Assembly (NCBI GenBank): GCA_037135035.1
Contig: JBAXLB010000001.1
Coordinates: forward strand, 23,102-87,101
Source: Candidatus Adlerbacteria bacterium
GTDB lineage: Bacteria; Patescibacteriota; Minisyncoccia; Phycocordibacterales; SBAW01
Reading direction: 5' to 3'
DNA: 64,000 nt
The notes under the pieces were generated by a model. That model saw nothing but the letters and a program-made list of their open reading frames with translations, was not told the origin of the DNA and ran no database searches. Position 1 is the stretch's first letter; every line of letters starts with the position of its first letter. Below are positions 28,876-46,346 of this stretch, piece after piece. The translations under genes and the position numbers were made by a program.

Positions 28876-29405
28876 GGTGTGTGGTATGTGCCTAATATGT
28901 CGACGCGTTCAAGTGCTCCTGTTTTAAAGCGCTCTATGGGGTCGTAAGTTATTTTAACCACTTGCCAGGAAAGATCTTTTGGAAAATACGCGGCTTCGAG
29001 CTCTGCTCGTACTACGTCGGCCCCTGCAGTGTCGCCCGCCACAAGGGCTTTCCCCAAACGGCGGATACCATCGCGTGCGCGGTTTGTCTGTGCGTCTCCA
29101 ATAATGTCATTCGCTTCGCCAAATAATTCTGGGGGAGTGAGTGCTTTTCCTTTATACGTTACAAGCCGCACGGTGTACTGCGTGCTGAAGTGTTCGTTTG
29201 GGACAAGTGCAAATAAAAACCAATGAAAAAAAGGTGGGAAGCTTTTGTCGTGTGCTGAAGAAAAAAGGAAAAAAGTAGAAAGTCCAATAACAAAATAAAG
29301 CCCTAAAAATATACTCAGTAGTGTCCGCAGTCGCGATACCTCGTGAGTGTCTTTGGGAGAGAGGTTCATGCGTAAGAGAATAGCATGCGCTACACTGGAC
29401 TGCAT
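28872..29405 (-). CDS. Hypothetical membrane-anchored protein
   Basis: ORF with TM 'LLSIFLGLYFVIGLSTFFLF'. The start is probably the internal Met. No recognised domain. Confidence 0.35.
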   Translation of the reverse strand: MQSSVAHAILLRMNLSPKDTHEVSRLRTLLSIFLGLYFVIGLSTFFLFSSAHDKSFPPFFHWFLFALVPNEHFSTQYTVRLVTYKGKALTPPELFGEANDIIGDAQTNRARDGIRRLGKALVAGDTAGADVVRAELEAAYFPKDLSWQVVKITYDPIERFKTGALERVDILGTYHTP

Positions 29406-29406
29406 G

Positions 29407-30918
29407 CGCTGGAAGTACGCGACTTTTTTTGTGTGTTTAATGATAGTCTCTGGCTTGTGTGGATACGGCATATACGCCTATATGCATCGGGGGCCGCTCG
29501 ACTTAACCGGCCAGAGCACTGTTACTATTACCCTTACAAAAAACGGTTTTGTTCCAAATGAGATATACATTAATCGGGGCACAACTGTTGTGTTTAATAC
29601 AACAGCAGGAAACCCGTTTTGGCCCGCGTCTGACTTGCATCCATTCCACACTATATATTCCGCATTTGACCCCAAGGGCCCAGTTGCTGCCACAAGCACC
29701 TGGAGTTTTACGTTCGACAAAGATGGACACTGGAGCTTTCATGACCACATAGGCTTGGCGACCGGTGTGATTATTGTGGTACCTCCTGGTGCTACAGGAG
29801 ACGCAAAATACGATGTGCTTGGGGTCTGTGATGAGCCAGAACAAAGCGGACGTGCGGCATGTTACCGCCAACACATATTGCTTGCGCTTGATAAAAAAGG
29901 TTTGGATGGTGCGATGAATGAAGTGGCATCTGTGTATCAAAACTATCCGGAGTTCCGCCCAGAATGCCATTCGTTTTTGCATGACCTGGGGCTTATGGCA
30001 TATAAAAAGTATGGCGAGCATGTTCCTCCGGCCAATACTATGTATTGCGGGCAAGGGTTCTATCACGGTTACTTAGAAAGTTTTCTTATGGAGCGACATG
30101 GCGATATAAAACCAGCACTTGCATTTTGTACAGCAGAAGCTAAACGACTTGGCGAAAAAACTGTTGCGGGTTTGCAGTGCATGCACGGCATTGGACACAG
30201 CGTTATGGAATATTTGCTTACGACACGTCCTGACCTAAGTAACAACAGCAGGAATCTACAAATACTTCTGGGTCTGGGAGTTGCCGAATGTGCCGCGATG
30301 CCTTCCCCAGAAGGGAAGTTCCGTTGTGCGGACGGGGCGTTCGACGTATTTAAAGCATGGGTCAATGTTCAGAGTTTACAGACTGTCTATACAGATGTTT
30401 TTTCGCTCGACCACCCCTTTGCGTTGTGTACACCTTTGCACGAAACATGGCAGAGGGATGCTTGCGTATGGGAAATGGCAAAAGAAACACTTGTTATTGC
30501 TAACCATAATACGCGCACCTCACTGCAGTCGGTTATGCGTGCTGCGCGCACGTGGTTAGATGGGACATACATGTTTTCTGCAATAACAAGCGTTGCGTTT
30601 GTTTCAGCCGCAAACAATGTCGACATGTCGGATAAAAAACTTGTAGGGCTATGTGCCTCTGTTGTTGATACAACGCTCCATTCATATTGTATTGCTGGCC
30701 TTCTGCGCGGAGTTGTTTTTAACGGCGCGCCGGGAACTGAAGGTGCGCGAGGCGCGGAGTTGTGTCACGTACGTACACTCACGTCAGGTGAAAAAACGCT
30801 CTGTGCCAAGACACTTGTTACGACTCTTGTAAATAACTATGGCGAAGTGGCCCGTGCTGCGGCATGTGCCCTCGTAGCGGATATTCCCGGAACGGACAAA
30901 CTCTGTACACCACAGTAG
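29407..30918 (+). CDS. Cys/His-rich extracytoplasmic protein, paralog 1, with N-terminal cupredoxin-like domain
   Basis: Signal anchor. Cupredoxin-like beta-sandwich 'VTITLTKNGFVPNEIYINRGTTVVFNTTAGNPFWPASDLHPFH...HWSFHDHIG'. Core motifs 'CHSFLHDLG', 'YCGQGFYHGY', 'CMHGIGHSV', 'CADGAFD' and 'CTPLHETWQRDAC'. The ORF track starts at 29347. Confidence 0.6.
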   Translation, partial: RWKYATFFVCLMIVSGLCGYGIYAYMHRGPLDLTGQSTVTITLTKNGFVPNEIYINRGTTVVFNTTAGNPFWPASDLHPFHTIYSAFDPKGPVAATSTWSFTFDKDGHWSFHDHIGLATGVIIVVPPGATGDAKYDVLGVCDEPEQSGRAACYRQHILLALDKKGLDGAMNEVASVYQNYPEFRPECHSFLHDLGLMAYKKYGEHVPPANTMYCGQGFYHGYLESFLMERHGDIKPALAFCTAEAKRLGEKTVAGLQCMHGIGHSVMEYLLTTRPDLSNNSRNLQILLGLGVAECAAMPSPEGKFRCADGAFDVFKAWVNVQSLQTVYTDVFSLDHPFALCTPLHETWQRDACVWEMAKETLVIANHNTRTSLQSVMRAARTWLDGTYMFSAITSVAFVSAANNVDMSDKKLVGLCASVVDTTLHSYCIAGLLRGVVFNGAPGTEGARGAELCHVRTLTSGEKTLCAKTLVTTLVNNYGEVARAAACALVADIPGTDKLCTPQ

Positions 30919-30934
30919 GGCATGAGTACAATGA

Positions 30935-31945: not shown

Positions 31946-31949
31946 GAGG

Positions 31950-32387: not shown

Positions 32388-32412
32388 ATACTGTGCAGTA
32401 TACTAGAACTCT

Positions 32413-33873
32413 ATGCGCACATTCCGCTTGTATGTTCCTGCTATAAGTGTGGTTGCCGTATTCCTTCTCTATATAGGTGTCGGACAGACCTATGCAGACA
32501 CGATGGCATCCATTGCGGCAAGTCTATGCGCCCTGTACCTGTGTGGTTTGTCTATACTCTATGCGGGTATCCCACACCCCAAGGAGTGGAAGCCTTCGCA
32601 GTGGCTGCTTGTCGCATTTGTGTTTGTAGTATTGTGTACTACGATTTTTTCTGGAAATTTTTTGCATGCATTCTTTGGCTTTGCACTCGACATGACGTCG
32701 GGGGGTTTTATAGTCCTTATGTGCATCCTTGCGTTATTCGTAGGTGGCTTTTCGCGCGTGGTGCGTCAAGGCCTTTTTATTGCATCAACCTGTGTGCTTG
32801 TAGGTCTTTTGGTGTATCCGTATCTACGCACCGAACAGCTTGTGCGACCGTCACTTACAACAACACTACGGGTAGAGTCGGCGGCGTATACGGACCTCGG
32901 TGGCAAAGTACTTGTGGCCGGCATAGGGCCGAGCGCGTTTACTTATGCGTGGCAAAAATATCGCCCAGGGGAAGTGCTCGCCACCCCTTTTTGGAACGAA
33001 GATTTTTCCGTCGGCAGCGGCCTGCTCCCCACGTTGCTCGTAGAATGTGGGGCTATAGCGGCGCTGTTGTTTACCCTTAGTTTTTTTTCAGCTGTTGCTG
33101 AAGAATTTTTGCAGGTCATTACACGGACATATACAATGCGTCGTCGTGTGGTTGCGCTCGCTTCAGTCGCCGTTATTTTTTTTGCTCTCGCACTGCTCGT
33201 GTATGCAGAACCTTCAGCACCGCTGTTGCTTGCGGTGGCAGTCGCGCTTGGTTCGTGTAGATACGAAGATTCTACGTGTCTTCGTGTACGTCCTTTGGTA
33301 CGAACGATACTTTTTGGAATTTTAGCGGTACTTACTGTTGGCGTTTTGTATCTCGGACTTTCAGCTGCATTTTATTTTTACGCATATGCAAACATGCAGC
33401 AGCAGGACCTTTTGCGCGCGCGCAGTGCAGGAGAATATGCATACGCACTTTCGCCCACGGGACAAACTGACCGTTTGCTCGCACAGATACTCCGTTCAAG
33501 TGGCCACGCACTGGGTAATGCGGCTGCGTCGCAGGTGCAGGTGGGGCAGCTGTTTCATCGTGCAAGCATCTATGCACGCGCAGCAACAGTAACCGAGAGC
33601 GCGAATGCACAAAGTTGGAAATTACTCGGTATCACCCTTGCTGAAGAAATGTCGCTTGCGCCAAGCGAAGACGTATTTTACGAAAGTAAGGCGGCATTCG
33701 AACGCGCGCACGCAGAGTCGCCCAATGATCCCTCGGTACTATTTTTCCAAGCGCAACTTTATATATTAGCTGGTCAAAAGCAGCAGGCCGGAGACGCACT
33801 ACAAGCAGCCCTGGCGCTGCGACCGACCTATACCGAAGCAAGCGATCTTTTGGCTGCGGTGAAGGCTAAATAA
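32413..33873 (+). CDS. Polytopic membrane protein with C-terminal TPR-like domain (Wzy/O-antigen-ligase-like architecture)
   Basis: ~9 TM helices followed by Ala/Gln-rich helical repeats. The architecture resembles the 7695-9989 protein. Confidence 0.4.
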   Translation: MRTFRLYVPAISVVAVFLLYIGVGQTYADTMASIAASLCALYLCGLSILYAGIPHPKEWKPSQWLLVAFVFVVLCTTIFSGNFLHAFFGFALDMTSGGFIVLMCILALFVGGFSRVVRQGLFIASTCVLVGLLVYPYLRTEQLVRPSLTTTLRVESAAYTDLGGKVLVAGIGPSAFTYAWQKYRPGEVLATPFWNEDFSVGSGLLPTLLVECGAIAALLFTLSFFSAVAEEFLQVITRTYTMRRRVVALASVAVIFFALALLVYAEPSAPLLLAVAVALGSCRYEDSTCLRVRPLVRTILFGILAVLTVGVLYLGLSAAFYFYAYANMQQQDLLRARSAGEYAYALSPTGQTDRLLAQILRSSGHALGNAAASQVQVGQLFHRASIYARAATVTESANAQSWKLLGITLAEEMSLAPSEDVFYESKAAFERAHAESPNDPSVLFFQAQLYILAGQKQQAGDALQAALALRPTYTEASDLLAAVKAK

Positions 33874-33883
33874 CATTCTGTAG

Positions 33884-35125
33884 TTAGCGGATGTTGGGCA
33901 AGTCTAATTCGGTCGTGGTTAATTTCCCCGCCTCTATCAGCTGTGCAATTGCTTGCTGTACGTGAGGGTCAGTGAAGGCCTGTAGTTTTTCTGGTGGGTA
34001 AAAGAGGGCTAGCTGTTTTGCTATAGAAAGATAACAAACTTTTTCAGCGTCCAGTGCGTGTATTTGGTTTGATGCACACAAGGCAAGTGCTTTTGGATAT
34101 TCTTGCTCTGGAAAACCTCCGGTAAAAAGTGCGCTCGGGAATATAGTAATACACGAAACAAATAACTCTTTTGAGACAGTTGCGCATGCAGGTATAAGAG
34201 ACAGGTAAGAGTTATGCGGCATGGCTCGCAAAATAAGTACTCGCATTGCCGGTCGAAACGCCTGGACGCGCAGTGAGGGGTCTTCTACCTGAGCAATGTG
34301 TTCTATAAGGGAAGGTACCGTAAGACTAGCTTCTCTAAAAAACCGGTCGGCAACGCCTGCGTAACACATACGCTTCCATGATTTGGCGAGCGTTGTGCAG
34401 AGTGCAAACGGGTGCAACTTGTCAAAGGAAAGGCCGTGTTGTTTTTGGGCAGCCCATTCAAGTAAGGCCGTAAATACACCCCGGTAGCATGTCTGACGTT
34501 CTATGTCTGTCAGTGTGTTGGGCAGAGTGTCGCATTGCCCGAGCGTATCTACTGCAAGTTGGCGTGCGTCCTTGGATGTGTCGTGTGCATGCGCAAGGAC
34601 AAACCCATGCCCGGCAGCGTGGTAACACTGCACGTTTATTGTTGGAAATATATTCGAGAAGCGCGTTTCAAAACTACTACATGTTGCAGTTACAAACGGC
34701 ACGTTTGGATGGTCTGCAAACAAGTGCATAAAAAAACCGTGAGGAACGCCAAAGGTGCAAACGTTTGCGGTCTCGGGGAAGTCGACTGTTTCCAGGCTTC
34801 CTCCGCTATGGAGTAGTTTGGAATACATTTGGTCTCCCATCCAATGGGCGTCGGCATGGCAATTTTCGGGAACTAATATGTTGGGGTAATGACTATATAA
34901 GTATGCGTAGTCGTGGAGCATGTCTGCCGCACCTCCTGTTGCGAGAGATGTATCGAGCAGTCCATACCAACATTCAATTTTGTCCGGCGCAGATGTATGA
35001 GAGTAGTCACATACGGCCGCATGGTATACGAAAGACTGTTGGCTAAAAAAATATATTCCAACACTAAAAATTACTGCAAGTAGTGCTACCCAGAATATGT
35101 GTTGCAGGCATTTTTTTGTGTTCAT
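33884..35125 (-). CDS. Cys/His-rich extracytoplasmic protein, paralog 2
   Basis: Signal anchor. Motifs 'NCHADAHWMGD', 'CTFGVPHGFFMH', 'CYHAAGHGF', 'CYRGVFT' and 'CTTLAKSWKRMCYAGVA' match the family core. Confidence 0.6.
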   Translation of the reverse strand: MNTKKCLQHIFWVALLAVIFSVGIYFFSQQSFVYHAAVCDYSHTSAPDKIECWYGLLDTSLATGGAADMLHDYAYLYSHYPNILVPENCHADAHWMGDQMYSKLLHSGGSLETVDFPETANVCTFGVPHGFFMHLFADHPNVPFVTATCSSFETRFSNIFPTINVQCYHAAGHGFVLAHAHDTSKDARQLAVDTLGQCDTLPNTLTDIERQTCYRGVFTALLEWAAQKQHGLSFDKLHPFALCTTLAKSWKRMCYAGVADRFFREASLTVPSLIEHIAQVEDPSLRVQAFRPAMRVLILRAMPHNSYLSLIPACATVSKELFVSCITIFPSALFTGGFPEQEYPKALALCASNQIHALDAEKVCYLSIAKQLALFYPPEKLQAFTDPHVQQAIAQLIEAGKLTTTELDLPNIR

Positions 35126-36006
35126 TGGAGATTAAACAATCTTTCTACTTGGCCTTCGCAGAGATTTTTTTTGTCATCAACAGTAAAGATTTGGCCGCAA
35201 ACTTTTTTTGATTCCTCTAGAGTTTGTGCGTGTACAACTATTTCGGCTGCTCCGCGCGCGCACACTGTGCGTAGGGCGGGGATAGAGTCATATTTCTGGC
35301 AATACAGGCCGAGTTGCTTCAAATGTTCAGGGGTTCTTTCGTTCTTAAATAGTGACGAAAACCACAGACGAGGAAATTCAAATACGCATTGCGGCATGTC
35401 ATGTTCCCCAAGTGCAAGTTCGTCGCATGGTGCATACGGCGCCGCCTGCGATACAGGAAAGGGTTCCGTGCCTGGAAGCATAGTCCGGTTAAAATATTCC
35501 ATAAACAAACCAGACTCGCAGGCTCCCACCACGTCCCCATGTTTAGAAATACTTTTACACGCAGCTACACTTTGTAGCGCAGAAGTTTTGGTGTACCCAA
35601 AATATCCCACCAGACCGTGCCCTATCCCATGTTCGCACACAAGAGGGTCTGCGCTCTTCGCACATATAGTATCGAGCTTTTTTATTATAGGGAGACCATA
35701 TTCCGCAAGTGCGCGGCCGTACATTTCATGTAAACATGCATACTGTAATGTGTCATCGCACACAGTCATTCCAGAAATTCCTTGTTCTTGATACAGCGCT
35801 GTGCCAAAATAATGACCTTCAAAATGTTCGGTAGTACTCGAGAGCAACTCCCTGTACGCGGGCGCCGCTCCTGTGGAATGTATACGTTCTTCCCAATACT
35901 TCACTCTCGCGTTTTCAACTACAGTAGGTGAGTGTAGTGTATGGTAGAGAAAAAAAACTACTAGAATTCCTCCAAGGAATAAGAATATTTTTATTGCACG
36001 GGGCAT
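35122..36006 (-). CDS. Cys/His-rich extracytoplasmic protein, paralog 3
   Basis: Signal anchor. 'CDDTLQYACLHEMYG', 'CEHGIGHGL', 'CESGLFMEYFN' and 'CDELALGEHDMPQCVFE'. The ORF track extends to 36084. Confidence 0.55.
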   Translation of the reverse strand: MPRAIKIFLFLGGILVVFFLYHTLHSPTVVENARVKYWEERIHSTGAAPAYRELLSSTTEHFEGHYFGTALYQEQGISGMTVCDDTLQYACLHEMYGRALAEYGLPIIKKLDTICAKSADPLVCEHGIGHGLVGYFGYTKTSALQSVAACKSISKHGDVVGACESGLFMEYFNRTMLPGTEPFPVSQAAPYAPCDELALGEHDMPQCVFEFPRLWFSSLFKNERTPEHLKQLGLYCQKYDSIPALRTVCARGAAEIVVHAQTLEESKKVCGQIFTVDDKKNLCEGQVERLFNLQ

Positions 36007-36010
36007 ACAA

Positions 36011-37483
36011 TTATAAATTTTTTGTTCTAAGTGAAGAAGTGCATACAGCTTGGTCGCCAACAGGGATAGTCTTGCATATAGCACTCAGGGCGGTGTTGCT
36101 ATACAGGGCACTCAATGTGTCTATCGTGCGCCTGTAACAATGGGTCCGTGCATCAGATATTGGAAAGAGCGAGCAGTAGGCGAGCATCTGTAGATATTCT
36201 GCTCCGGGCTTGCCTCCAGATGAGAGTGCGTTTGCTACACCATCAATAACTGCCTCCCGCTCTTTTTCTTCTGGAAATGCAATAGTTTCTTCGTACAATT
36301 GTTCCAGTGTCTTGTCTTGCAAGTTGTGTCGCACGGTGTCGTCAAACAACGCCATAAGGCCAGAATACCGTGCATTTCCGGGCAACTGATTTATAAAATA
36401 AATTGCATGTGTGTAGTCGTATCCAACATAGTGTATGTAGCCCATTGCGAGTTCGCTGTAACATGACTGCCTATATGCAGGTGTCTGGGTGCGGCAGAGT
36501 GCTGCGGGGTCGCTTGCACGATAGGAAAGATTATAATCGTTTGAACCTTCAGCGATAGAAAGGGAATTAAAAACTCCAGATGCACACCGTGCGCGCCACT
36601 GTGTGTTTGTTGTAACAGTCTCACATTCTCCAATTGCCTGCATCGCCATTGTTTTTTCATTGCCCCAAGATGCCCCGGGCAATGAGTCAAAGAGTGCATG
36701 CCCAATACCGTGAAAGCACGCAGCCGCTGCCGACGAGCCTGCTGCTCGCGAGGGTAGAACAGGGTCGGTGAGTAGCCCTATACAGTAAGAGTTTGCTTCG
36801 TGTAAATAATCTCTCCCGAGTTCTATAAGCATTTGTTCCATAAAACCGTGGTAAAAACCGTACCCACAGTAACTCGTTTCTGGGCGGGCGATATGCACAC
36901 CTGTTTTTTTATACTCACTGTAGGCGGTACTGCCGAGCACATGCATGACGTCGTGACACTGGTTTTGAAATTCGGGACTTGTTTGGTAGTACTGGCTTAC
37001 AGCGTCGAACCCTGCAGAGAGACCGCTCTGTTTCATCGTGGCTGTTATCTCAGCAGCCCAACAATACCCTCGTGTAATGTCGTGTGACGCGGAAAGACAA
37101 TTTTTTATGCTTTCGTCTTTCGCTCCTTCAACCAATATGGAGCCGCGCATTTCGGGCACTATACGGTCATGAAAGTTCCATACCCCTGCCTGCTCAAATG
37201 TATGAGACCAGATTTCAGTTGGCAGAAGGGCATGTCCCGGGTCGAAAACAAAAGAAAGGCTTTGTGAAGAATATAACTCCGAAGCAGGCCAGAAGGCTGC
37301 GCCCGCGGTGGAGATAAACTGCACGATGTCACCTTTGTGTATGAGTACTGTCTTTGGGATAAAACCTTGCTCTGTGCGAGTAATGGTCACCGTATGTGAG
37401 TGGTGAGTGAGGTAAAAAAATACTCCACATACACATAGAACTAGTGCAACAACACTGCCGACACGTGTTCCGGGGCCTCGCAT
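36011..37483 (-). CDS. Cys/His-rich extracytoplasmic protein, paralog 4, with N-terminal cupredoxin-like domain
   Basis: 'TVTITRTEQGFIPKTVLIHKGDIVQFISTAGAAFWPASELY...WNFHDRIVPEMRGSILV' cupredoxin-like domain. Core 'CHDVMHVLG', 'YCGYGFYHGF', 'CFHGIGHAL' and 'CASGVFN'. Confidence 0.6.
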   Translation of the reverse strand: MRGPGTRVGSVVALVLCVCGVFFYLTHHSHTVTITRTEQGFIPKTVLIHKGDIVQFISTAGAAFWPASELYSSQSLSFVFDPGHALLPTEIWSHTFEQAGVWNFHDRIVPEMRGSILVEGAKDESIKNCLSASHDITRGYCWAAEITATMKQSGLSAGFDAVSQYYQTSPEFQNQCHDVMHVLGSTAYSEYKKTGVHIARPETSYCGYGFYHGFMEQMLIELGRDYLHEANSYCIGLLTDPVLPSRAAGSSAAAACFHGIGHALFDSLPGASWGNEKTMAMQAIGECETVTTNTQWRARCASGVFNSLSIAEGSNDYNLSYRASDPAALCRTQTPAYRQSCYSELAMGYIHYVGYDYTHAIYFINQLPGNARYSGLMALFDDTVRHNLQDKTLEQLYEETIAFPEEKEREAVIDGVANALSSGGKPGAEYLQMLAYCSLFPISDARTHCYRRTIDTLSALYSNTALSAICKTIPVGDQAVCTSSLRTKNL

Positions 37484-37511
37484 GTGGCGTTAGTATAGTA
37501 CGAAACGGCTC

Positions 37512-38105: not shown

Positions 38106-38652
38106 CTTCCAAGCCAGAGTATATTTGTTTGCAACGTTGTTGCTGTGTGTGCCTGTAGTTGCCCTCGGGGTGACGTTAAAAGGAAATGTAAAATTTGCTG
38201 GGAACCTTGCTATTACAGGCGCCCTTTCCAAGGGCTCCGGTACCTTCGTTATCGACGACCCAGTCGACCCCGCTAACAAACTTCTCTACCACTCGTTCGT
38301 CGAGTCACCTGATGTAAAAAATATCTACGATGGTATTGCAACGTTGGATGACAAGGGAGAGGTAATAGTACAGCTGCCAGAGTATTTCGACGCGCTCAAT
38401 AAAGATTTTAGATATCAATTTTTCCCACTCGACCATGCCGACCCAAATGTATATTTGAAAGTGGGGGCAGACAAAACAAAAAATCAGTTTACTATTGCAG
38501 GGGGCACTCCGGGAGCCCGTGTCTCCTGGCAAGTCACCGGCATCCGCCACGACCCATACATTTTGGCGCATCCTATAGTCCCGGAAGTCGAAAAGACCGA
38601 CACAACGCTTGTGAAGAAAGGCGAGTATCTATTTGAAGGATATGAAAAATAA
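38092..38652 (+). CDS. Secreted protein, tandem paralog B
   Basis: The same conserved block, 80-90% identical to A. Its start overlaps the stop of A. Confidence 0.55.
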   Translation: MRKSNFQARVYLFATLLLCVPVVALGVTLKGNVKFAGNLAITGALSKGSGTFVIDDPVDPANKLLYHSFVESPDVKNIYDGIATLDDKGEVIVQLPEYFDALNKDFRYQFFPLDHADPNVYLKVGADKTKNQFTIAGGTPGARVSWQVTGIRHDPYILAHPIVPEVEKTDTTLVKKGEYLFEGYEK

Positions 38653-39379
38653 TATATATACCTATACGGTCTCGGTGCTCTCGCTACTTGCCTGTGTGCT
38701 TATTCCGCATACTACCCATGCGTATTCACAAGGAGACTACTATGCTGAGTCGGCATATTATTCGCAGCCGTACTACCAAGGAACGTACTATTCACAGTCA
38801 ACGTATTACTCACAAAGTACGTACTATTCACAGTCAACGTATCAGACAACCTTTACAAAAAATGCTACTGCATCGAAAACTGTTGCAGTAACAGGTTCTA
38901 TTTCCAAAGGCTCCGGCACCTTCGTCATTGACCATCCACTGGACCCTGCTAACAAACTTCTCTTCCACTCATTCGTCGAGTCACCTGATGTAAAAAATAT
39001 CTACGATGGTGTTGCTATGTTGGATGGCAAGGGAGAGGTAACAGTAAAGCTTCCGGCATACTTCGAAGTACTTAACAAAGACTATCGTTACTTAGTGCGG
39101 CCACTCGGGCAACCCATGCCTAACCTCTATATAAGCGGCGAAGTGCAAAATAACCAGTTCGGCATTAGCGGAGGCGCCCCGGGCGGGCGCGTCTCCTGGC
39201 AAGTTACCGGCATCCGCCACGACCCCTACATACTCGCCAACCCAATAGTTCCTGAAGTTGAAAAGACCGACACAACATTAGTAAAGAAAGGGGAGTATAT
39301 TTACTCCGCCGGATATACAAAAAATTCGCTTGGCACGCTTAGTTCATTTGCGGCATTTTTTGCGGGGCTGTTCCACTAG
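38642..39379 (+). CDS. Secreted protein, tandem paralog C, with N-terminal YSQSTY repeat region and C-terminal hydrophobic tail
   Basis: The same conserved block plus '(YYSQST)x4' low-complexity repeats. Its start overlaps the stop of B. Confidence 0.55.
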   Translation: MKNNIYTYTVSVLSLLACVLIPHTTHAYSQGDYYAESAYYSQPYYQGTYYSQSTYYSQSTYYSQSTYQTTFTKNATASKTVAVTGSISKGSGTFVIDHPLDPANKLLFHSFVESPDVKNIYDGVAMLDGKGEVTVKLPAYFEVLNKDYRYLVRPLGQPMPNLYISGEVQNNQFGISGGAPGGRVSWQVTGIRHDPYILANPIVPEVEKTDTTLVKKGEYIYSAGYTKNSLGTLSSFAAFFAGLFH

Positions 39380-39579
39380 CTACGGCGTACGCTATACTAT
39401 AGACATTAGACTATGATTAAGAAATTTCTTATAGGACTCGGGTTCCTTCTTCCTGTCCTGACATTTGGGTTTGTTTCGAATAAAGGCAAACAGGAACTAT
39501 TTTGCCCTGTTGTGCCTTCTCCAAACCAAGAGGCAGAAAAGCAAACACAAGGAAAATCTACAGACAAGGTCTACTACGT

Positions 39580-39975
39580 ATGGTGCGGCGGCGTGTACTA
39601 ACAGAAGGTCTGGTGTCTGGCCAGTCATGGGAAGCGCTTGGTCGGTTGCTTGATGATGTACGCCCAAAGGGTCTCGGGCTCCTGTTGCCCCCATTATTAC
39701 AGCTACATGGCCTCGCGTATGTAGAAGCGCGCGCGAGAGGTATTGTTGTGGCGAGTACGTTTCCTTCGCAGCTTGGTGCACTTACAGGTCTTGCACGAGA
39801 AATTTCTATAGAAGCATTTGTAACAACAGAGGCTCTCGCGCGGGAAGTTGTTCCTCATCTTGAAGGTCTTGGAATTCTCTCCTCTATTAAAGGTTGGCTT
39901 ATTGTCACTACGTCTGGCGAAGTTTCTCCGTACACGCCACCCAAAGGGGTGGTCGTGTTTGACCCACTACTATGA
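39580..39975 (+). CDS. Hypothetical protein, translationally coupled to the downstream ligase gene
   Basis: The ORF ends in ATGA, overlapping the start of the 39972 gene. No recognised domain. Confidence 0.3.
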   Translation: MVRRRVLTEGLVSGQSWEALGRLLDDVRPKGLGLLLPPLLQLHGLAYVEARARGIVVASTFPSQLGALTGLAREISIEAFVTTEALAREVVPHLEGLGILSSIKGWLIVTTSGEVSPYTPPKGVVVFDPLL

Positions 39976-41258
39976 CCCCACTTTCTCGTGCACTGCAATT
40001 TGCAATTTTAAATCCGTATTCGGATTTTTATCGCCGTAAGTATGGCAGTGAGTACAAAACATATATAGAAAAAGATCTTGCTGACATCCCCTTGCTGACA
40101 CGGGAGGAAATAGATGTAACTCCTTTTTTTGACCGCATTTTTATCCCAAAGGAAATGATACATTTTGTGCGGGCAACGTCCGGGTCATCGGGGCGGGGAG
40201 TTATTGCGTTCCCGCTTGCAGAAGAGCCAGAGCTAATGCGCTACCGGAAGTCGCTTGGCTTTAGCGGGGAAGAAGCACTTGCGGGCCGTTTTTTTGGACC
40301 CTATTTTAAAAAAGAAGATACGTATTCTATTCTCATATATTCGCCGTCAAATGCTGTGCACGAAACATATGTAGTAGAGGAGGGTGGGCACGTCGCAGTG
40401 TCGGGCGACTATCGCGACCAAGAAAAAACATTTGCGCTTGCCGAAGCTGCAGGAGTCGACTCGATGTATTCGTTTCCTTCACCTCTTGCAGGTGTCGGAC
40501 ACTATGTCGCAGGGGGGCCGCTTGCTGCGCGTATGCGCCTTATTGTTTTGATGGGTGAGCGCGTGACAGAGCCGCTGCGTAGAGAATTAGTTGAGACATT
40601 TCCACATGCAACTATTGCTGCCGTCTACGCTACCGTAGACGCCCATGGCACTGTTGCATATACCTGCCCGAGCCACCTGACCACTGCACCAAACTATATG
40701 CACGTATTCCCAACGTACCAGCTAGAACTTGTCGACCCAGAAACCGGCCATGTAGTTCCGCAGGTGGAGGGTGCTGAAGGCGAAGTGGTGATAACAGCAC
40801 TGACACCGATGGCGTTTTCTCTTGTGCGCTACCGCACGGGTGACTACGCCGTGGTGCGCCAGCACGGGATCTGTTCGTGTGGTAGTACAGATCCTGTGTT
40901 TGAAATACTCGGCCGTGTTGGCTTAGACAGGATAAAACTCCTGCCGTACGGAGGTATAAGTAGTGCCGCACTTGAAGAAGCAGTGCTAAGGCTCTCATAT
41001 AAAGTTACAGACTTTACTGCTGCGTGGGACGAGCGTATAAAACCACCAAGCCTCTCGGTAGTTCTATATACCGACACTGCCCCGGCTGATACCACTACAG
41101 AGCTGCTCGGCCCTGCTATCCAGGTAAGCTCTACGCGAACATATGCCGACCTTGTAGAGCTCGGTGTTGTTGCACCACTTGTATGTACTGTGGAGCCGGT
41201 AGAAGTATTGCGCACATTACCAACAGACAAACGCAAACGACTTCAAGTATCTAGATAG
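39972..41258 (+). CDS. Adenylate-forming enzyme of the phenylacetate-CoA ligase/coenzyme F390 synthetase (PaaK/CapK) family
   Basis: P-loop-like 'VRATSGSSGRGV' (cf. the TSGTTG motif) and 'YRTGDYAV' (cf. the YRTGD motif). Length ~430 aa as in CapK. Confidence 0.55.
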   Translation: MTPLSRALQFAILNPYSDFYRRKYGSEYKTYIEKDLADIPLLTREEIDVTPFFDRIFIPKEMIHFVRATSGSSGRGVIAFPLAEEPELMRYRKSLGFSGEEALAGRFFGPYFKKEDTYSILIYSPSNAVHETYVVEEGGHVAVSGDYRDQEKTFALAEAAGVDSMYSFPSPLAGVGHYVAGGPLAARMRLIVLMGERVTEPLRRELVETFPHATIAAVYATVDAHGTVAYTCPSHLTTAPNYMHVFPTYQLELVDPETGHVVPQVEGAEGEVVITALTPMAFSLVRYRTGDYAVVRQHGICSCGSTDPVFEILGRVGLDRIKLLPYGGISSAALEEAVLRLSYKVTDFTAAWDERIKPPSLSVVLYTDTAPADTTTELLGPAIQVSSTRTYADLVELGVVAPLVCTVEPVEVLRTLPTDKRKRLQVSR

Positions 41259-42860
41259 TTAGTGCATACGCGCACGAACATATTCTGCACGTTTTTGTTG
41301 TAGTTGTGTAAGTGGCGGGACAAGTACTCGTGCGCGCGCAGGAATGTCTCGTGTAAGTAATGTGCGGATATCGGAAAACGCAGGTTCAGTGTCGCGTATC
41401 TGCATATACGAAACATACGGTACTCCCTGTCCTTTTGATATCTGGTCGGCGGGCGTTGCTCTTTGTGTAGTTAAAGGTTCTGGTGTGGGAGAAATAGTTT
41501 TGTTGTTGAGCGCATAGAGCTGCGACAAGCCGCCACGGGAGATAAAGTACACAAGTGTTGGGCTTGACTGCAGGTTGTAGATAATAGAGCCGCCAATTTG
41601 GAGGTCGTCAAAATATCCAACCGTGCCAGCAAAATCAGCACTGTTTGTCTCGGCTTCTGTTACAAGTTCTATAAGCCGCAGAACTTCTGTTTGTCCGCCG
41701 AGCCTCTCTGTAAGTATGTTCTTAGATGTGCCGCGAACAGTTTCTGTCGCCGCCCTAATAAATGCATAGTATGCAGTGTCTGTAAGGAAAGGCGCTTCTG
41801 TAAAGTTTTTTTGTGCACTCACTAAAGTTTCGAAAAGGGGAGAGGTAGGTGCCGTAGGTGTAAATGGATTCTGTCTCAGCGTATCGTATGCACGTTGTAT
41901 AGTTACTGTTTTCCCAAAATCTATACCTGCGTCGGGGCACAAGTATGCGCGGAATGGTTGGTAGGTAAAAGAGTCGCCCTCTTTTCGAAGTGCTGCATAA
42001 AAAGGTTGTGTGCTGGTTCGTACATCTTCAAAATATAAGTCACTCAAATAGACCGCCTGTGTCGTCGGTAAGTTTGAAAGTCGCGACACTCCTCCAACAA
42101 CTGCAAAAAAAGCAGGTGAGTCGGTAAAGCAGGAAGACTGTGCAAGCGAAATAAGAGGTCGAGTACCAATAGATGGATAGGCAACTGTAAGTGCGTCACG
42201 GTTTTCTAGCACGCTGCTGAGAACGCTTTCGGTGGGGGGCAGATTTTGGCCGACATCGTGCGGTCCAAATTGCAGCTGTAATTTTGTCAGCGACTCGCAG
42301 GCTCCGGCTGTACCGTCAAAACATGCGAACCGAGCCTTTTCTTTTTCTTCTGCTCTTGTGTCTGTCAGGAGTGTGTCTGCGAGCACATTTCGTATATGAG
42401 TAGCTGTTGTTCGTCCGCTAAACAATTCATATTGCGAGCCCGACATGTCGCGGGCGAGCAGGGCGACAGCATCTTCTAGGTCTTTCTTGTGTGCCGCAAT
42501 AAGTGAGAGAAGTAGTGTGTGATACAACGTAGCATGTTCCAGCGTTGGCTCTGCAAGCATCTGCCTCCTAGCCTCTTCTGTTTGTGGGAGTAGATCTAAA
42601 AAACGAAATGGGTATATATGGTCTCGCACATAGGCACCTTCTGGAAAGGCAGGAAGTGCTACAGAGGCAGATATTTTAAATGCTGCTATTTGGGTTTTTA
42701 GGTCTGCTGTTTCAAACCCTGGAAATGCAAACAGTGGGTCAAGTGCATGGGCTTCTGCATATGCTGCGGGGTTTCCAACTGACATCTTCATCTCACGGAG
42801 GCGCGCCAGGCTGCCTATGCTGGCAAGCAGGACCAACATAATCAAGCATAGTCCTGCCAT
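41259..42860 (-). CDS. Large hypothetical secreted/membrane-anchored protein
   Basis: N-terminal TM 'MAGLCLIMLVLLASIGSLA', ~530 aa. No recognised domain. The ORF track extends to 42935. Confidence 0.4.
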   Translation of the reverse strand: MAGLCLIMLVLLASIGSLARLREMKMSVGNPAAYAEAHALDPLFAFPGFETADLKTQIAAFKISASVALPAFPEGAYVRDHIYPFRFLDLLPQTEEARRQMLAEPTLEHATLYHTLLLSLIAAHKKDLEDAVALLARDMSGSQYELFSGRTTATHIRNVLADTLLTDTRAEEKEKARFACFDGTAGACESLTKLQLQFGPHDVGQNLPPTESVLSSVLENRDALTVAYPSIGTRPLISLAQSSCFTDSPAFFAVVGGVSRLSNLPTTQAVYLSDLYFEDVRTSTQPFYAALRKEGDSFTYQPFRAYLCPDAGIDFGKTVTIQRAYDTLRQNPFTPTAPTSPLFETLVSAQKNFTEAPFLTDTAYYAFIRAATETVRGTSKNILTERLGGQTEVLRLIELVTEAETNSADFAGTVGYFDDLQIGGSIIYNLQSSPTLVYFISRGGLSQLYALNNKTISPTPEPLTTQRATPADQISKGQGVPYVSYMQIRDTEPAFSDIRTLLTRDIPARARVLVPPLTQLQQKRAEYVRARMH

Positions 42861-42898
42861 TTTGAGGTTTTGCATTGCCGTCAAGTATACTAAATAGT

Positions 42899-44053
42899 AT
42901 GCAGGTTTCCACGAAACTGCGGCGCATGTTGCCAAAACTCATCCCACTTTTTTTGCTGTGTACAATTGTTGGATACGCATACTATGTACGTATGGCGACT
43001 CCATATCCGGAAGTGACTGAGATAGCACATCATGAAAGTACTTTTAATGAATTAAATGCATATTTTAAAGATATTGCAGTAAAAAAGGGCGCGCTGTATG
43101 CGTTTGAAATATTACGTCGTGCGCCTTTACCACCCCAAACAGACATTCACTTGCTTGGGCACACAGTTGGGGACGAGCTGTATAAACAATATGGCAAAGA
43201 TGCAATTCAATACTGTACGAATGAATTTCGCAATGCTTGCTCACACACAGTTGTAGTTGGTCTGTTGCTCGACTATGGTGAAAAAGCTCTAGACGATATT
43301 TCAGAATCCTGCAAAAAAGCTCCGGGAGGTATAGGTGCGTACACGATGTGCTTCCATGGTCTTGGGCACGGTGTGCTTGCGTACGAAAATTACAACTTAG
43401 AAAAAACAATAACGCTCTGTAAAAAGGTGGGCACTAAAGCAGCGGGTTTTGAAGAATATCCACAGTGTGTTGGCGGTGCTATTATGGAATTAATTTCCGG
43501 TGGAGGCCACAGTCCTGAAGTGTGGAGTACGATGCGCCCACAGTATTTGACCACTGCCGACCCTCTCTCTCCTTGCGACAAGCCGTATATGCCAAAAGAA
43601 GTTCGCGCTTTTTGTTATATCTACATCACACCACATTTAATTGAGGCTGCAGGCGGTGACAAAAATCACCCTGACCCTGCGGTATTTCCGAAAGCCTTTT
43701 CACTGTGTCGTGCACTTCCAGTGGGCGACCACGACCGCGACGTGTGTATAGGGTCGTTCGGAAAAGAATTTATTTGGTGGGCACGGCAGAGCGATGCGCG
43801 CGATATTACTACACTGACCGACGAGGAGCTCGGACGTATGGCATTGTGGTGCTCACGTTCTGGTAATGCGCATGACACAACACTATGTCTTGAAAGTATA
43901 CAAGATTCTCTCTATTGGGGTGGAGAAAATGATCCAAAAATTTCCGTACATTTCTGCGCACTTCTTGGTGTACAAGACCCGGCAGCAGAACGCTCGTGCG
44001 CTTCGTATTTACAGGTCCTTACTGACAGATATACACCCCACACATCAAAATGA
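42899..44053 (+). CDS. Cys/His-rich extracytoplasmic protein, paralog 5
   Basis: Signal anchor. 'HLLGHTVGDELY', 'CTNEFRNACSHTV', 'CFHGLGHGV', 'CVGGAIMELI' and 'CDKPYMPKEVRAFCYIY'. Confidence 0.55.
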   Translation: MQVSTKLRRMLPKLIPLFLLCTIVGYAYYVRMATPYPEVTEIAHHESTFNELNAYFKDIAVKKGALYAFEILRRAPLPPQTDIHLLGHTVGDELYKQYGKDAIQYCTNEFRNACSHTVVVGLLLDYGEKALDDISESCKKAPGGIGAYTMCFHGLGHGVLAYENYNLEKTITLCKKVGTKAAGFEEYPQCVGGAIMELISGGGHSPEVWSTMRPQYLTTADPLSPCDKPYMPKEVRAFCYIYITPHLIEAAGGDKNHPDPAVFPKAFSLCRALPVGDHDRDVCIGSFGKEFIWWARQSDARDITTLTDEELGRMALWCSRSGNAHDTTLCLESIQDSLYWGGENDPKISVHFCALLGVQDPAAERSCASYLQVLTDRYTPHTSK

Positions 44054-45117
44054 AGTACCCGCTGGGCTACCATAGTGCTGCCCTACTCTGCATAGCACTG
44101 GTTCTTGGAAGTATTGTTGTTTCGCACATGCGCACAAGCTCCTTGAAGGTGCCTGTGTTTGCGTTGTATACCAATGAAGGCTTTAGAGAGGCAGGGGCAT
44201 TTTGGAAAGGAGAAATAGCGCGAGCAGGTGGCAAAAAAGCCTATACAGAATTTCTTCGGACGTACGCAAGTTCGACACCCGGAGACCAGCACACAATGGC
44301 GCATATTTTTGGAGGCAGTTTATATGCGCAGGAAGGAGTGGCGGGACTTTCTGCCTGTGACGACTCGTTTGCGTACGGTTGTTTCCACGAATTTTTAGGG
44401 CGCGCTATACAACAGGAAGGTCTTACTATTGTTGGGACGCTCAACGAGGCTTGCTTTAAAGCACTGGGTCCCGGGAAAGCACTTTCCTGTACTCACGGTC
44501 TTGGACATGGTATCGAGTCGTATCTTGGATACACAGACGACGCGTTGATACAAAGCCTTGATGTATGTAAGAAACTTGCAAACAGTGACCCTATTGGTGG
44601 CTGTCCAGGAGGAGTTTTTATGGAATTTAATATGCGCACTATGCATTCGTTTTCTGGCATGCCGCCACGGAGTGTTGAACCAGAAGGTCTACAGTATCCG
44701 TGCAGTATATTTACGGGCGGTGATGCGGAGGTTTGCTATTATTGGCAGCCGCAATGGTGGTATCAGACTTTTAAAAGTGAAGGAAAGAGCTCTAGGGACA
44801 TAGTTGCTCGTATAGGAGCATTATGTAGTGGCACAGCAATGAGTGTGCATACAAAATGTTTTCAAGGAGTAGGTACTATTGTTGCTATGGCTGCAGACTA
44901 TGACGTTGCAGAAACAATCAGGCTATGTACTCTTGCGTCTGCGCGCAACGATGAGCGAAGCCCCTGTAGAGTAACTGCCGCCGACTCTTTTTTTGCGGAG
45001 GTGTCCGCTCGCAGTCGCGCTCGAGGCTTGTGTGTAGGTCTCGTTGAGCCATGGTACACAATGTGTGGCAAGGCAGCTTCAGGTAGGTCAGAAGTACCTC
45101 CTGCGGGTCGCGACTAA
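44050..45117 (+). CDS. Cys/His-rich extracytoplasmic protein, paralog 6
   Basis: Signal anchor. 'CDDSFAYGCFHEFLG', 'CTHGLGHGI', 'CPGGVFMEFN' and 'CSIFTGGDAEVCYYW'. Start/stop overlap with paralog 5 (ATGA). Confidence 0.55.
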   Translation: MKYPLGYHSAALLCIALVLGSIVVSHMRTSSLKVPVFALYTNEGFREAGAFWKGEIARAGGKKAYTEFLRTYASSTPGDQHTMAHIFGGSLYAQEGVAGLSACDDSFAYGCFHEFLGRAIQQEGLTIVGTLNEACFKALGPGKALSCTHGLGHGIESYLGYTDDALIQSLDVCKKLANSDPIGGCPGGVFMEFNMRTMHSFSGMPPRSVEPEGLQYPCSIFTGGDAEVCYYWQPQWWYQTFKSEGKSSRDIVARIGALCSGTAMSVHTKCFQGVGTIVAMAADYDVAETIRLCTLASARNDERSPCRVTAADSFFAEVSARSRARGLCVGLVEPWYTMCGKAASGRSEVPPAGRD

Positions 45118-45122
45118 ATACT

Positions 45123-46346
45123 ATGAATACGCAGAGAAAAAATAATAGGTGGGCGCATGTTGCAGCGACAGTCTTGGTAGGTTTGTTGGCGTTGTTTCTT
45201 GTTGTTTCTGCAAACGCTGGGCTGTCCCGGTCACTAGCTCGCACGACAGCCACATTTTTTGTTTGGTATTGTGCACAGAAGCCAGACAGTGCCGGATGCT
45301 ACGAACGCACCGTGCCGCGTCTTTTATATGTAGTCCCTGTTACAGATGTGTTTTCGGTCATACGTGAAATTCAAACGCAAGATACCTCGTATCGTTTTTG
45401 CCACGTGCTTGCGCACAACATAGGACAAGACGAAGTTGCTAGGGACACGGGTGCATGGGTGAGCTTGATGCATAAAAACCCACCGGACAGTGTGTGTTCT
45501 AACGGGTATATCCACGGCATTATTGTTGGTAGGTTCCATGCGGCGGAGCTACCTCCCGAACAAATTGATGCAATTGAGCCTGACCTGGCCCGGGCATGCG
45601 AACCTGCTGCCGATTGGAGCCCGACAAACCTCGACAAAGCAATGTGTTACCACGGCATGGGGCACGTGCTCACGTTTATAACGGGTGCCGACATGCCTCG
45701 AGCAGTTTCGTACTGTAAAAAAATAGCCATAAAAACTAATGGCGAAGACTATAGTCAAACGTGTATCTCTGGCGTGTTTATGCAAATTTTCCAACCGCTT
45801 GAACCAGAAGACTACGAACTTATCGAGAGACTTCCGGCCAAACCCACGCGCGACACACTTGCGCAATTTTGCGGTGCGTACAAAACAGAAGAAGAGCGCA
45901 GTTTATGTTTTGGTGAAGGATGGCCACTGTTCCGTGACGACTTAAAAACTGCTGCGGGTGTACAAGCATTTTGTACAACAGTAAAAGACTCCGCAACACA
46001 AACAAATTGCTACCGCACCGCACTTACTATTGGTGCGCGGACGTCGCTTGGGCAGCCAGAAAAACAAATGGCAGTTTGCAGTGCTTTGCCAGGAGCACTT
46101 GGGCAGGAATGTTTTGGCATCCTTGCCGAGGCATTTGTCGAAGAAGACAGAACACAAGGCCCGGCCGCTGCAGCTATCTGTACACATGCAGGGGAGCAGT
46201 ACTCGGAGAGTTGTTTTGGATATCTGGCAAACCTTGCAAACTTTACATTTGGAAGTGATACAGTGAACAGAGAGAAGCTCTGCGCCGTCTTGCCCGAGAG
46301 CATGCGGCAACAGTGCGCAAAGAACAATTCGTCTACCACGTTATGA
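45123..46346 (+). CDS. Cys/His-rich extracytoplasmic protein, paralog 7
   Basis: Signal anchor. 'RFCHVLAHNIG', 'CSNGYIHGI', 'CYHGMGHVL', 'CISGVFMQIF' and 'CTTVKDSATQTNCYRT'. Confidence 0.55.
   Translation: MNTQRKNNRWAHVAATVLVGLLALFLVVSANAGLSRSLARTTATFFVWYCAQKPDSAGCYERTVPRLLYVVPVTDVFSVIREIQTQDTSYRFCHVLAHNIGQDEVARDTGAWVSLMHKNPPDSVCSNGYIHGIIVGRFHAAELPPEQIDAIEPDLARACEPAADWSPTNLDKAMCYHGMGHVLTFITGADMPRAVSYCKKIAIKTNGEDYSQTCISGVFMQIFQPLEPEDYELIERLPAKPTRDTLAQFCGAYKTEEERSLCFGEGWPLFRDDLKTAAGVQAFCTTVKDSATQTNCYRTALTIGARTSLGQPEKQMAVCSALPGALGQECFGILAEAFVEEDRTQGPAAAAICTHAGEQYSESCFGYLANLANFTFGSDTVNREKLCAVLPESMRQQCAKNNSSTTL

Follow-up and report, generated by a model that had tools for sequence, protein, structure and literature searches.

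Several described systems resemble the proteins encoded at this locus. Among the closest are the HEAT/ARM alpha-solenoids, including the HEAT repeats of SF3B1/Hsh155, TOG domains and designed helical repeats. HcpB and HcpC, the cysteine-rich (Sel1-like) proteins of Helicobacter, are secreted and consist of alpha/alpha repeats with an inter-helix disulfide in each repeat, and in Sel1-type Helicobacter proteins the repeat is 36 residues long and its disulfide has the form C-x7-C. Deoxyhypusine hydroxylase is a non-haem di-iron enzyme built as a HEAT-repeat solenoid, in which His residues borne on helices are ligands to a metal centre, and EfeO of the EfeUOB iron uptake system combines a cupredoxin-like domain with a following helical metal-binding (M75/imelysin-like) domain.

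Seven related genes in the window

The window, i.e. the whole stretch of 64000 nucleotides that was analysed, includes seven paralogous genes, designated p1 to p7, in the following positions.

p1, 29407 to 30918, forward strand: N-terminal anchor helix, cupredoxin-like domain (~29509–29781) and helical core; five-His region 29968–30198
p2, 33884 to 35125, reverse strand: core only; type-A staple (Cys immediately N-terminal to the first His); five-His region 34607–34858
p3, 35122 to 36006, reverse strand: core only, the shortest member; type-B staple (C83–C91); five-His region 35617–35826
p4, 36011 to 37483, reverse strand: N-terminal cupredoxin-like domain (~37130–37408) and core; five-His region 36698–36955
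p5, 42899 to 44053, forward strand: core only; type-B staple; five-His region 43148–43369
p6, 44050 to 45117, forward strand: core only; model pLDDT 94.7; five-His region 44290–44508
p7, 45123 to 46346, forward strand: core only; type-A staple; five-His region 45402–45665

All seven open reading frames were verified at the coordinates and on the strands originally given, and a profile constructed from the seven proteins detected exactly these seven ORFs in the window (E-values 1e-88 to 1e-135). Outside the window this profile matches proteins in the thousands, far more than chance would produce. The start of p1 is ambiguous, with an ATG at 29368 that is preceded by a GGGAGAGAGG-like Shine-Dalgarno sequence and a further possible start at 29407, from which the p1 residue numbers used below are counted. 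Overlapping ATGA stop/start codons, which had been described for several members, were found at p3/p2 (35122–35125) and p5/p6 (44050–44053), 4 nt in each case, whereas p4/p3 and p6/p7 are separated by gaps of 4–5 nt. The description of this 17 kb region as an island was not borne out by composition, as its GC content of 0.46–0.51 lies within the 0.43–0.52 seen across the window.

One hydrophobic 19-mer (Kyte-Doolittle 1.6–2.4) is located near the N-terminus of each of the seven proteins, in agreement with the predicted signal or anchor helix, and an N-terminal hydrophobic segment is present in 94% of 403 complete family members. This predicted topology supports an extracytoplasmic location for the family.

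Family size and divergence

An exhaustive HMMER search recovered 6642 cluster representatives, giving at least 6642 family clusters as defined at 50% identity; a locus scan with a single protein had retrieved only three loci. Members were also found in Nitrospirales and Binatia. Arrays of 8 and 12 family genes occur in other genomes, and single proteins elsewhere carry up to seven fused copies, including a relative of 3580 aa (P0034) in which seven copies are fused to a GH3 glycosidase domain. Fusions of different paralogue types in one polypeptide (p2 with p6, p5 with p4, and p7 with p6) were also identified.

The paralogues in the window share only 16–31% identity with one another, whereas several of the paralogue types have orthologues that are 38–47% identical and keep the gene order in other genera of Parcubacteria. 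In a second Adlerbacteria genome, the counterparts of the paralogues are 77–96% identical, a level similar to that of the neighbouring genes. Together with the larger arrays found elsewhere, these values do not support the original picture of seven members that expanded locally by tandem duplication. On the grounds of paralogue divergence, orthology, identity to the sister genome and composition, the region was rejected as the product of recent tandem duplication, as a horizontally acquired island and as a hypervariable repertoire. By sequence comparison, the seven genes are differentiated, anciently diverged members of one family, and given this divergence and orthology the overlapping stop/start codons point to operon-style co-translation of differentiated subunits, not to recent duplication.

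Fold of the core and comparison with known families

The core had been predicted not to belong to any named family, and a search of Pfam, NCBIfam and PDB sequences with the family profile returned nothing significant. No match to the core with E<0.1 was found in Pfam-A 2025 or NCBIfam 20.0 for any of the seven proteins, and the core of six distant or multi-copy relatives also matched no curated family. A PHROGs scan of p1 and p6 was negative, and fold searches identified no close solved structure for the core. Literature searches yielded no description of the family; the CPR protein-family paper of Meheust et al. treats other families.

Structure models of the core are all-alpha with 15 helices, and the best matches were to HEAT, TOG and designed repeats at low scores; the HEAT profile itself matched none of the seven proteins. 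Deoxyhypusine hydroxylase was among the best Foldseek matches but the similarity was weak (probability 0.84–0.85, TM 0.28–0.30), and this enzyme differs in being cytosolic and disulfide-free and in having four His-Glu motifs, whereas no invariant Glu is present here. The likeness to HcpB/HcpC lies in predicted alpha/alpha repeats stapled by disulfides outside the cytoplasm. However, Sel1 did not match these proteins, and their Cys pairs are 11–16 residues apart. Neither the helical Peptidase_M75 domain nor the HxxE metal motif of EfeO/M75 imelysin-like proteins was found, and the type-3 dicopper arrangement of tyrosinase and haemocyanin (six His as 3+3 in a four-helix bundle, with a profile match) was also not seen.

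Invariant residues and cysteine pairs

A multiple alignment of the seven paralogues (MAFFT) confirmed that the predicted Cys and His columns are conserved, with 15 columns invariant. In p1 these are H188, H192, G195, H220, C241, C258, H260, G263 and H264, followed by C307, G310, C341, C353, C453 and C466. All seven proteins share five invariant His residues, a number of Gly and five or more Cys pairs. Two of the motifs originally described had to be narrowed. In the first, H-x3-H-x2-G is universal but the Cys, directly before the first His, is limited to p1, p2, p4 and p7. In the second, the His is universal (mostly as G-x2-H-G) but YCGxGFxHG occurs only in p1 and p4.

A wider census took in 181 proteins with 244 domain copies. 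It showed the five His to be retained in 238–240 of 240 domain copies, and Cys at HMM columns 149, 165, 205, 241, 254, 345 and 358 is present in 100% of copies. As His is polar and the subfamilies share <20% identity, the invariance of the five His suggests a functional site. In the models, all five are placed in confidently modelled helices, as i/i+4 pairs on two helices and a single His on a third. This invariant arrangement makes metal binding by the five-His cluster plausible. The His are not joined by any acidic, Met or Tyr ligand that is likewise invariant.

The Cys residues at columns 91 and 121 occur together in 156 copies, are both missing in 83 and are never found singly. An alternative subfamily has Cys at column 114 or 117 together with 125, which would join the same two His-bearing helices, and in p4 both Cys of the 310/322 pair are missing together. 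The original suggestion that the Cys residues form disulfides gains support from this perfect co-occurrence and co-loss of partners.

Cupredoxin-fold domain of p1 and p4

An additional domain, absent from the original description, precedes the core in p1 and p4 and has the beta-sandwich of the cupredoxin fold, giving a layout comparable to that of EfeO. The scores against PF13473 (Cupredoxin_1) were 15.5 bits for p1 and 12.3 bits for p4, under the gathering threshold of 27 bits, and homologous modules in the relatives P0069 (67.5 bits), P0048 (46.4 bits) and P0079 (45.9 bits) pass it. The type-1 copper ligand set (His...Cys-x(n)-His-x(n)-Met) was not found in the p1 and p4 domains, which have lost the Cys and Met and contain no Cys at all. 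They are His-rich (WPAS..HP.H ... [YF]HDH), such that the His-Cys-His-Met of Cupredoxin_1 and plastocyanin/amicyanin is replaced by HP.H and [YF]HDH ... L, and in the C-terminal loop [YF]HDH(L/I)xPxxxG takes the place of the YYCEPHRGAGM of plastocyanin. The module is fused to the core in approximately one third of the family, and the majority of members, five of the seven paralogues in the window among them, are without it.

Gene cluster surrounding the family

The genes around the seven paralogues include the following.

18802 to 27003, forward strand: giant ORF of 2733 aa, with homologues upstream of the cluster in four other loci
37512 to 39379 (37512–38105, 38071–38652 and 38633–39379), forward strand: three tandem secreted paralogues ('VIDD'), a conserved cluster partner
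39972 to 41258, forward strand: w428, PaaK-like adenylate-forming enzyme (AMP-binding), a conserved cluster partner
41259 to 42935, reverse strand: w558, membrane protein of 558 aa that matches no family and has a hydrophobic stretch at the N-terminus, a conserved cluster partner
46313 to 46864, forward strand: w183, small protein with a signal peptide, beta-rich domain and C-terminal TM helix, the partner following the p7-type gene

These partners recur around the family at loci L005, L001/L013 and L008–L012 as well as in the window; the Nitrospirales members are without them. The three VIDD paralogues share the motif GSGTFVIDxPLDPANKLLxHSFVESPDVKNIYDG, and their domain is similar to the C-terminal portion of a minor tail protein from an Arthrobacter phage, as detected by tblastn only; a PHROGs scan of these proteins was negative. 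In other genomes the trio is directly upstream of a p5-type gene, so that p5 orthologues are the first family gene after the trio, and the order of p5-type followed by p6-type genes is also conserved. The window is rich in glycan genes (Wzy_C/TPR, GT2 and SLT).

A His at the apparent mature N-terminus of w183 is conserved (A|H(T/V)TG.S.E). This His and a CopC-domain protein encoded upstream in L001 and L013 had raised the possibility of a CopC/YcnI-type copper protein, for which Pfam, NCBIfam and PDB sequence searches gave no support and which is kept as no more than a tentative lead. The gene context makes the host- or environment-interaction role originally proposed for the family plausible.

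Proposed model and alternative explanations

With family membership, topology signal, fold class, invariant residues, Cys co-variation, orthology, synteny and domain fusions established directly, metal binding, the identity of the metal, complex formation and a physiological role can be inferred as follows. The seven proteins would be differentiated subunits from one ancient family, each anchored by its N-terminal helix to the outer side of the cytoplasmic membrane. The modelled ectodomain would be a HEAT-like alpha-solenoid of ~6–7 helical hairpins, and in nearly every hairpin a disulfide would staple a Cys at the close of one helix to a Cys in the opening turns of the helix that follows. The five His would be spread over three helices of the N-terminal repeats, one bearing H-x3-H, one a lone His and one H-G-x-G-H. 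With invariant Gly beside them and disulfides one to six residues off holding them in place, they would form a transition-metal centre for which copper may be the likeliest metal. The cupredoxin module, with His/Asp replacing the type-1 Cys/Met, could provide a second metal or redox site beside the solenoid. The conserved p5–p6 order, the ATGA overlaps and the multi-type fusions suggest that the paralogues act jointly and are not redundant, probably as a hetero-oligomer or stacked array, and the setting would be a cluster of cell-surface genes, conserved in Parcubacteria, that also encodes a giant protein and tail-protein-like secreted proteins. A set of membrane-held, disulfide-stapled solenoid subunits that have a five-His metal centre and act jointly is given a chance just short of even.

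Some features of the locus run counter to this model. Five His fit neither a type-3 dicopper site, which has six, nor a diiron site, which requires carboxylates, and the cupredoxin module is neither present in most members nor equipped with canonical copper ligands. Most CPR bacteria lack respiratory chains, and a redox partner is therefore not obvious. The tail-protein-like and giant neighbours suggest a structural or adhesive surface role over metal handling. In an alternative, the family proteins would be non-catalytic scaffolds or adaptors that bind other proteins, as is usual for HEAT-like proteins, and that anchor or assemble the tail-protein-like proteins and the giant surface protein on the membrane, with the His cluster being structural (a hydrogen-bond network or, for example, a zinc site). 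Repeats of this fold class bind proteins, tight co-location of the family with the three tail-like proteins, the giant ORF and envelope proteins extends across at least seven loci, the differentiated paralogues and their fusions suggest a multi-subunit assembly, and FG-GAP repeats are fused in one relative. However, binding scaffolds rarely hold five polar residues invariant across subfamilies of such low identity, the domain that is repeatedly fused to the family has a metal-protein fold and is not an adhesin domain, and the Nitrospirales members have no tail-like or giant neighbours. Scaffolding is judged a somewhat unlikely function. An activity as metal-dependent enzymes that attack polymers of the envelope or the host (for example as glycan or peptidoglycan oxidases or lyases), with the paralogues differing in substrate, appears improbable, although these are extracytoplasmic proteins with an invariant putative active site, one relative joins seven copies to a glycosidase domain and glycan genes are abundant nearby.

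That recent lineage-specific tandem duplication has generated a variable secreted repertoire for host interaction is very hard to sustain. In its favour, CPR bacteria are thought to be episymbionts and the genes adjoin, some with overlapping stop/start codons, but the low identity of the paralogues, the orthologues in conserved order in other genera, the identity to the sister genome at a level similar to that of the neighbours and the unremarkable composition oppose it, with orthology largely refuting it. The idea that the family assists type IV pili or type II secretion derives from Nitrospirales, where both loci examined adjoin pilus genes, L006 including two PilT-like T2SSE ATPases and L007 N_methyl pseudopilins and GspH. 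However, this sample from outside the CPR consists of two loci only, and there is no pilin-like N-terminal motif or T2SSE gene beside the arrays in the window or the Parcubacteria loci L001–L009. Pilus association was for this reason rejected as a general explanation, and a pilus or secretion role is highly doubtful for the family.

Significance

The CPR/Patescibacteria have small genomes and surface proteins that are mostly unannotated, and some lineages devote 7–12 genes per genome to this family. It has no curated entry, solved relative or proposed function, despite belonging to a cluster conserved across Parcubacteria. In a broader reading of the metal-centre model, which is possible but rather unlikely, the solenoids would be subunits of an unrecognised extracytoplasmic metalloprotein complex, widespread in Parcubacteria and found in some Nitrospirota and Binatia, in which several ancient paralogues, each with a disulfide-pinned five-His centre and some with a remodelled cupredoxin that has no Cys, assemble on the membrane surface. 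Jointly with the tail-like proteins and the giant adhesin they would make up a new surface apparatus by which ultra-small bacteria contact a host, carry out metal or redox chemistry, or both. The very confident models and the sharp pattern of five His and one disulfide per hairpin make the family a tractable target. If the His cluster is only structural, it would still be a useful example of disulfide-stapled HEAT-like repeats outside the cytoplasm; otherwise it could establish a metal-binding repeat domain of a new type and give initial access to a surface system that these episymbionts have conserved.

The seven paralogs and their common core

All seven open reading frames (ORFs) of the original prediction were found at the expected positions:

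29407-30918, forward strand: p1 (start possibly at 29368)
33884-35125, reverse strand: p2
35122-36006, reverse strand: p3
36011-37483, reverse strand: p4
42899-44053, forward strand: p5
44050-45117, forward strand: p6
45123-46346, forward strand: p7

For p1, the alternative ATG at 29368 is preferable to that at 29407 in its Shine-Dalgarno-like sequence, and may be the true start. Each protein contains 13-20 Cys residues and, at the N-terminus, a single strongly hydrophobic segment, and a profile HMM built from p1-p7 recovered exactly these seven ORFs when the 64-kb window was searched. A MAFFT alignment revealed 15 invariant columns (5 His, 3 Gly and 7 Cys). The proposed ordered motif core was retained in part, as the His and Gly residues of motifs 1 and 2 were universal; the remaining residues of these motifs were not, and the Cys adjoining the first His was subfamily-specific. 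The stop and start codons of p3/p2 and of p5/p6 do overlap (ATGA). The composition of the region does not set it apart as a distinct island, and an additional N-terminal domain in p1 and p4 had been overlooked. The window also encodes housekeeping proteins (SecA, GatB and GAPDH) and includes glycan genes, a content consistent with a CPR/Parcubacteria genome.

As predicted, the core belongs to no named Pfam family, with no significant match in Pfam-A, NCBIfam or, using the family profile, PDB sequences. No description of the family was found in the literature searched, and no solved structure covers it. Because the AlphaFold2 models of p1 (pLDDT 93.1, pTM 0.86) and the p6 ectodomain (pLDDT 94.7, pTM 0.92) are very confident, the predicted fold class of the core is a HEAT-like alpha-solenoid, for which no close solved relative was found.

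Conserved His and Cys residues

Residue conservation was assessed in 181 proteins, from which 244 domain copies were aligned. The five His residues (HMM positions 92, 96, 127, 167 and 171) were present in 238-240 of 240 copies, Cys residues at positions 149, 165, 205, 241, 254, 345 and 358 in 100%, and G99, G170 and G208 were 97-100% conserved. In the p6 model, H81 and H85 are carried by one long helix, H113 by the helix that follows, and H149 and H153, within the motif C-x-H-G-x-G-H-G, lie two helices beyond that of H113. We infer that two i/i+4 His pairs with a fifth His amid Gly residues would be the pattern expected of an inter-helix metal site.

The remaining invariant Cys residues are paired at a spacing of 11-16 residues, linking the end of one helix with the start of the next, or approximately one staple per hairpin. 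Cys occupied columns 91 and 121 together in 156 copies and neither column in 83, and no copy had it in one column alone (phi = 1.0). In most copies without this pair, an alternative staple, Cys at 125 with Cys at 114 or 117, joins the same two His-bearing helices. The 91/121 staple occurs in p1, p2, p4 and p7 and the 114/117-125 staple in p3, p5 and p6. In p4, both Cys of the 310/322 pair are missing. This joint presence or absence is direct evolutionary evidence for Cys pairing, and supports the disulfide bonds originally proposed.

The extra N-terminal domain of p1 and p4

The module in p1 and p4 has the signature (F/H)WPAS(N/D)xHP(T/F)H ... (Y/F)HDH(L/I)xPxxxGxIxV, with neither Cys nor Met at the positions where type-1 copper sites have these residues. 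Of the 418 family members collected, 145 carry it, nearly always N-terminally, and it is the dominant fusion partner of the family, sometimes with a Copper-bind domain alongside. Other fusions were found once each, to a GH3 glycosidase with LRV/HEAT repeats and to FG-GAP repeats. The former is P0034, a metagenome protein of 3580 aa with seven solenoid copies and the GH3 domain C-terminal, and the latter, P0056, has three solenoid copies.

Family size and distribution

When 1.84 billion cluster representatives were searched exhaustively with HMMER, 6,642 proteins matched at E<=1e-3, 5,257 at E<=1e-10 and 1,559 at E<=1e-30. Their source records call them all 'hypothetical protein', or 'plastocyanin' in the case of members with the extra domain. 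The named organisms include Candidatus Kaiserbacteria, Paceibacterota, Pacebacteria and the Parcubacteria/Patescibacteria group and, outside the CPR, Nitrospirales, Nitrospirae and Candidatus Binatia. The Nitrospirales members share 45-55% identity with 'Patescibacteria group' proteins, a level of sequence similarity that suggests that this subfamily is either highly conserved or was transferred horizontally between phyla. Tandem arrays of 8 (locus L001) and 12 genes (L003) were found in other genomes, and single polypeptides carry 2-7 copies of the domain. The p1 protein is 92% identical to its counterpart in a Candidatus Adlerbacteria metagenome-assembled genome from Lac Pavin (L005), and p6 is identical to an NCBI 'hypothetical' protein of Candidatus Adlerbacteria.

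Age and association of the paralogs

The paralogs are pairwise only 16-31% identical, with several pairs scarcely detectable by BLAST, yet several types have orthologs of 38-47% identity in other Parcubacteria. Identity to the sister genome L005 is comparable for the paralogs (77-96%) and their neighbours (80-96%). In L001, L008, L009, L011, L012 and L013, a p6-type gene again comes after one of p5 type, and in L010 the two are separated by a p4-type gene. Natural fusions join p2-type and p6-type (P0038), p5-type and p4-type (P0039), and p7-type and p6-type (P0042 and P0043) domains in one chain. Together, these findings argue for non-redundant subunits that are made together and physically associated, and against a recent burst of the tandem duplication originally envisaged.

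A conserved gene cluster

The same partners surround the family in L001/L013, L008, L009, L010, L011, L012, L005 and the window, where all are present in a rearranged order:

18802-27003, forward strand: giant protein of 2733 aa
37512-39379, forward strand: three tandem secreted 'VIDD' paralogs (197, 193 and 248 aa)
39972-41258: w428, PaaK-like adenylate-forming enzyme, 1-2 copies per cluster
41259-42935: w558, protein of ~550 aa, 1-2 copies per cluster
46313-46864, forward strand: w183, small protein with a signal peptide, beta-rich domain and C-terminal TM helix

At most loci, the family array begins with the p5 type. The giant ORF has no domain match besides a weak HTH_17; its homologues in L008, L010, L011 and L012 measure 3,000-5,000 aa and lie ahead of the same cluster, the one in L010 bearing LVIVD, RCC1 and WD40-like propeller repeats.

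The 'VIDD' paralogs, with the common motif GSGTFVIDxPLDPANKLLxHSFVESPDVKNIYDG...VSWQVTGIRHDPYI, are 52-65% identical to distant Parcubacteria proteins, and hence more conserved than the solenoids. They had no match in Pfam, NCBIfam or PHROG; the domain resembles the C-terminal region of the last Arthrobacter phage minor tail protein (35% identity, E 6e-9) and also matches a cyanophage ORF, and some homologues include a Pfam Gly_rich_2 domain. The third paralog (38633-39379, forward strand) has a Tyr/Ser/Gln-rich low-complexity insert (YYSQPYYQGTYYSQSTYYSQSTYYSQSTYQ) after the signal peptide.

In w183, which has a relative in L001 (12690-13214), a conserved His immediately follows the apparent signal-peptide cleavage site (A|H(T/V)TG.S.E) and is the predicted mature N-terminus, reminiscent of His-brace copper proteins; no match to CopC, YcnI or another family was found. 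A protein of 888-933 aa with a CopC (PF04234) copper-binding domain is encoded in the related loci L001 (1-1559) and L013 (946-3612), directly upstream of three tail-protein-like genes and the solenoid array.

Other genes were observed nearby. A DctP (TRAP-type solute-binding protein) gene lies within ~5-8 kb of the cluster in L001, L010 and L012, and an apolipoprotein N-acyltransferase-like gene (LNT_N and CN_hydrolase) at a similar distance in L008 and L011. An operon divergent from p1 and conserved in L005 (27017-27919, 27916-28875 and 28872-29471, all reverse strand) encodes a secreted esterase similar to PHA/PHB depolymerases of the extracellular type (NCBIfam E 3.5e-30, though below the cut-off) and two proteins with no family match, a multi-pass membrane protein of 319 aa and a protein of 199 aa. 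Proteins with a hydrophobic N-terminal part and C-terminal TPR repeats are encoded at 32413-33873, between p1 and the p2-p4 operon, and at 7695-9989 (both forward strand), the latter with a Wzy_C O-antigen-ligase domain.

The gene context suggests a cell-surface apparatus, and does not alone specify the role of the solenoids.

Possible function

The model tentatively favoured, at slightly under even odds, is that the proteins are membrane-anchored solenoids stiffened by disulfides, in which the five His residues of the first repeats would form a putative transition-metal centre. Copper would be the likeliest metal, because the ligands would all be nitrogen, the compartment is oxidising and the domain that recurs as a fusion partner has a cupredoxin fold. 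This His-rich, cupredoxin-like module may supply a neighbouring site, a layout analogous to that of EfeO. The main rival is possible but less probable: the solenoids would be a scaffold with no catalytic role that anchors the fibre-like and giant proteins encoded with them, and the His cluster would be purely structural. A polymer-active metalloenzyme is improbable.

A role as a pilus accessory would fit two Nitrospirales loci where the family adjoins type IV pilus genes, namely two PilT-like T2SSE ATPases in L006 (9806-14955) and N_methyl pseudopilins and GspH in L007 (874-7917). However, the neighbourhoods of the arrays in the window and in L001-L009 yielded no pilin-like genes, and this role is very unlikely. 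The same low probability attaches to a recently duplicated variable repertoire, given the divergence of the paralogs and their orthologs in other Parcubacteria.

The sequences were already public as hypothetical proteins and the fold class itself is known. New to curated knowledge is the combination of an extracytoplasmic HEAT-like solenoid with one predicted disulfide per hairpin, a putative disulfide-pinned five-His cluster, a Cys-less cupredoxin partner, 7-12 ancient paralogs per array and a conserved surface cluster. It is conceivable, though doubtful, that these genes represent a new metalloprotein system, built of several subunits, on the surface of ultra-small bacteria.
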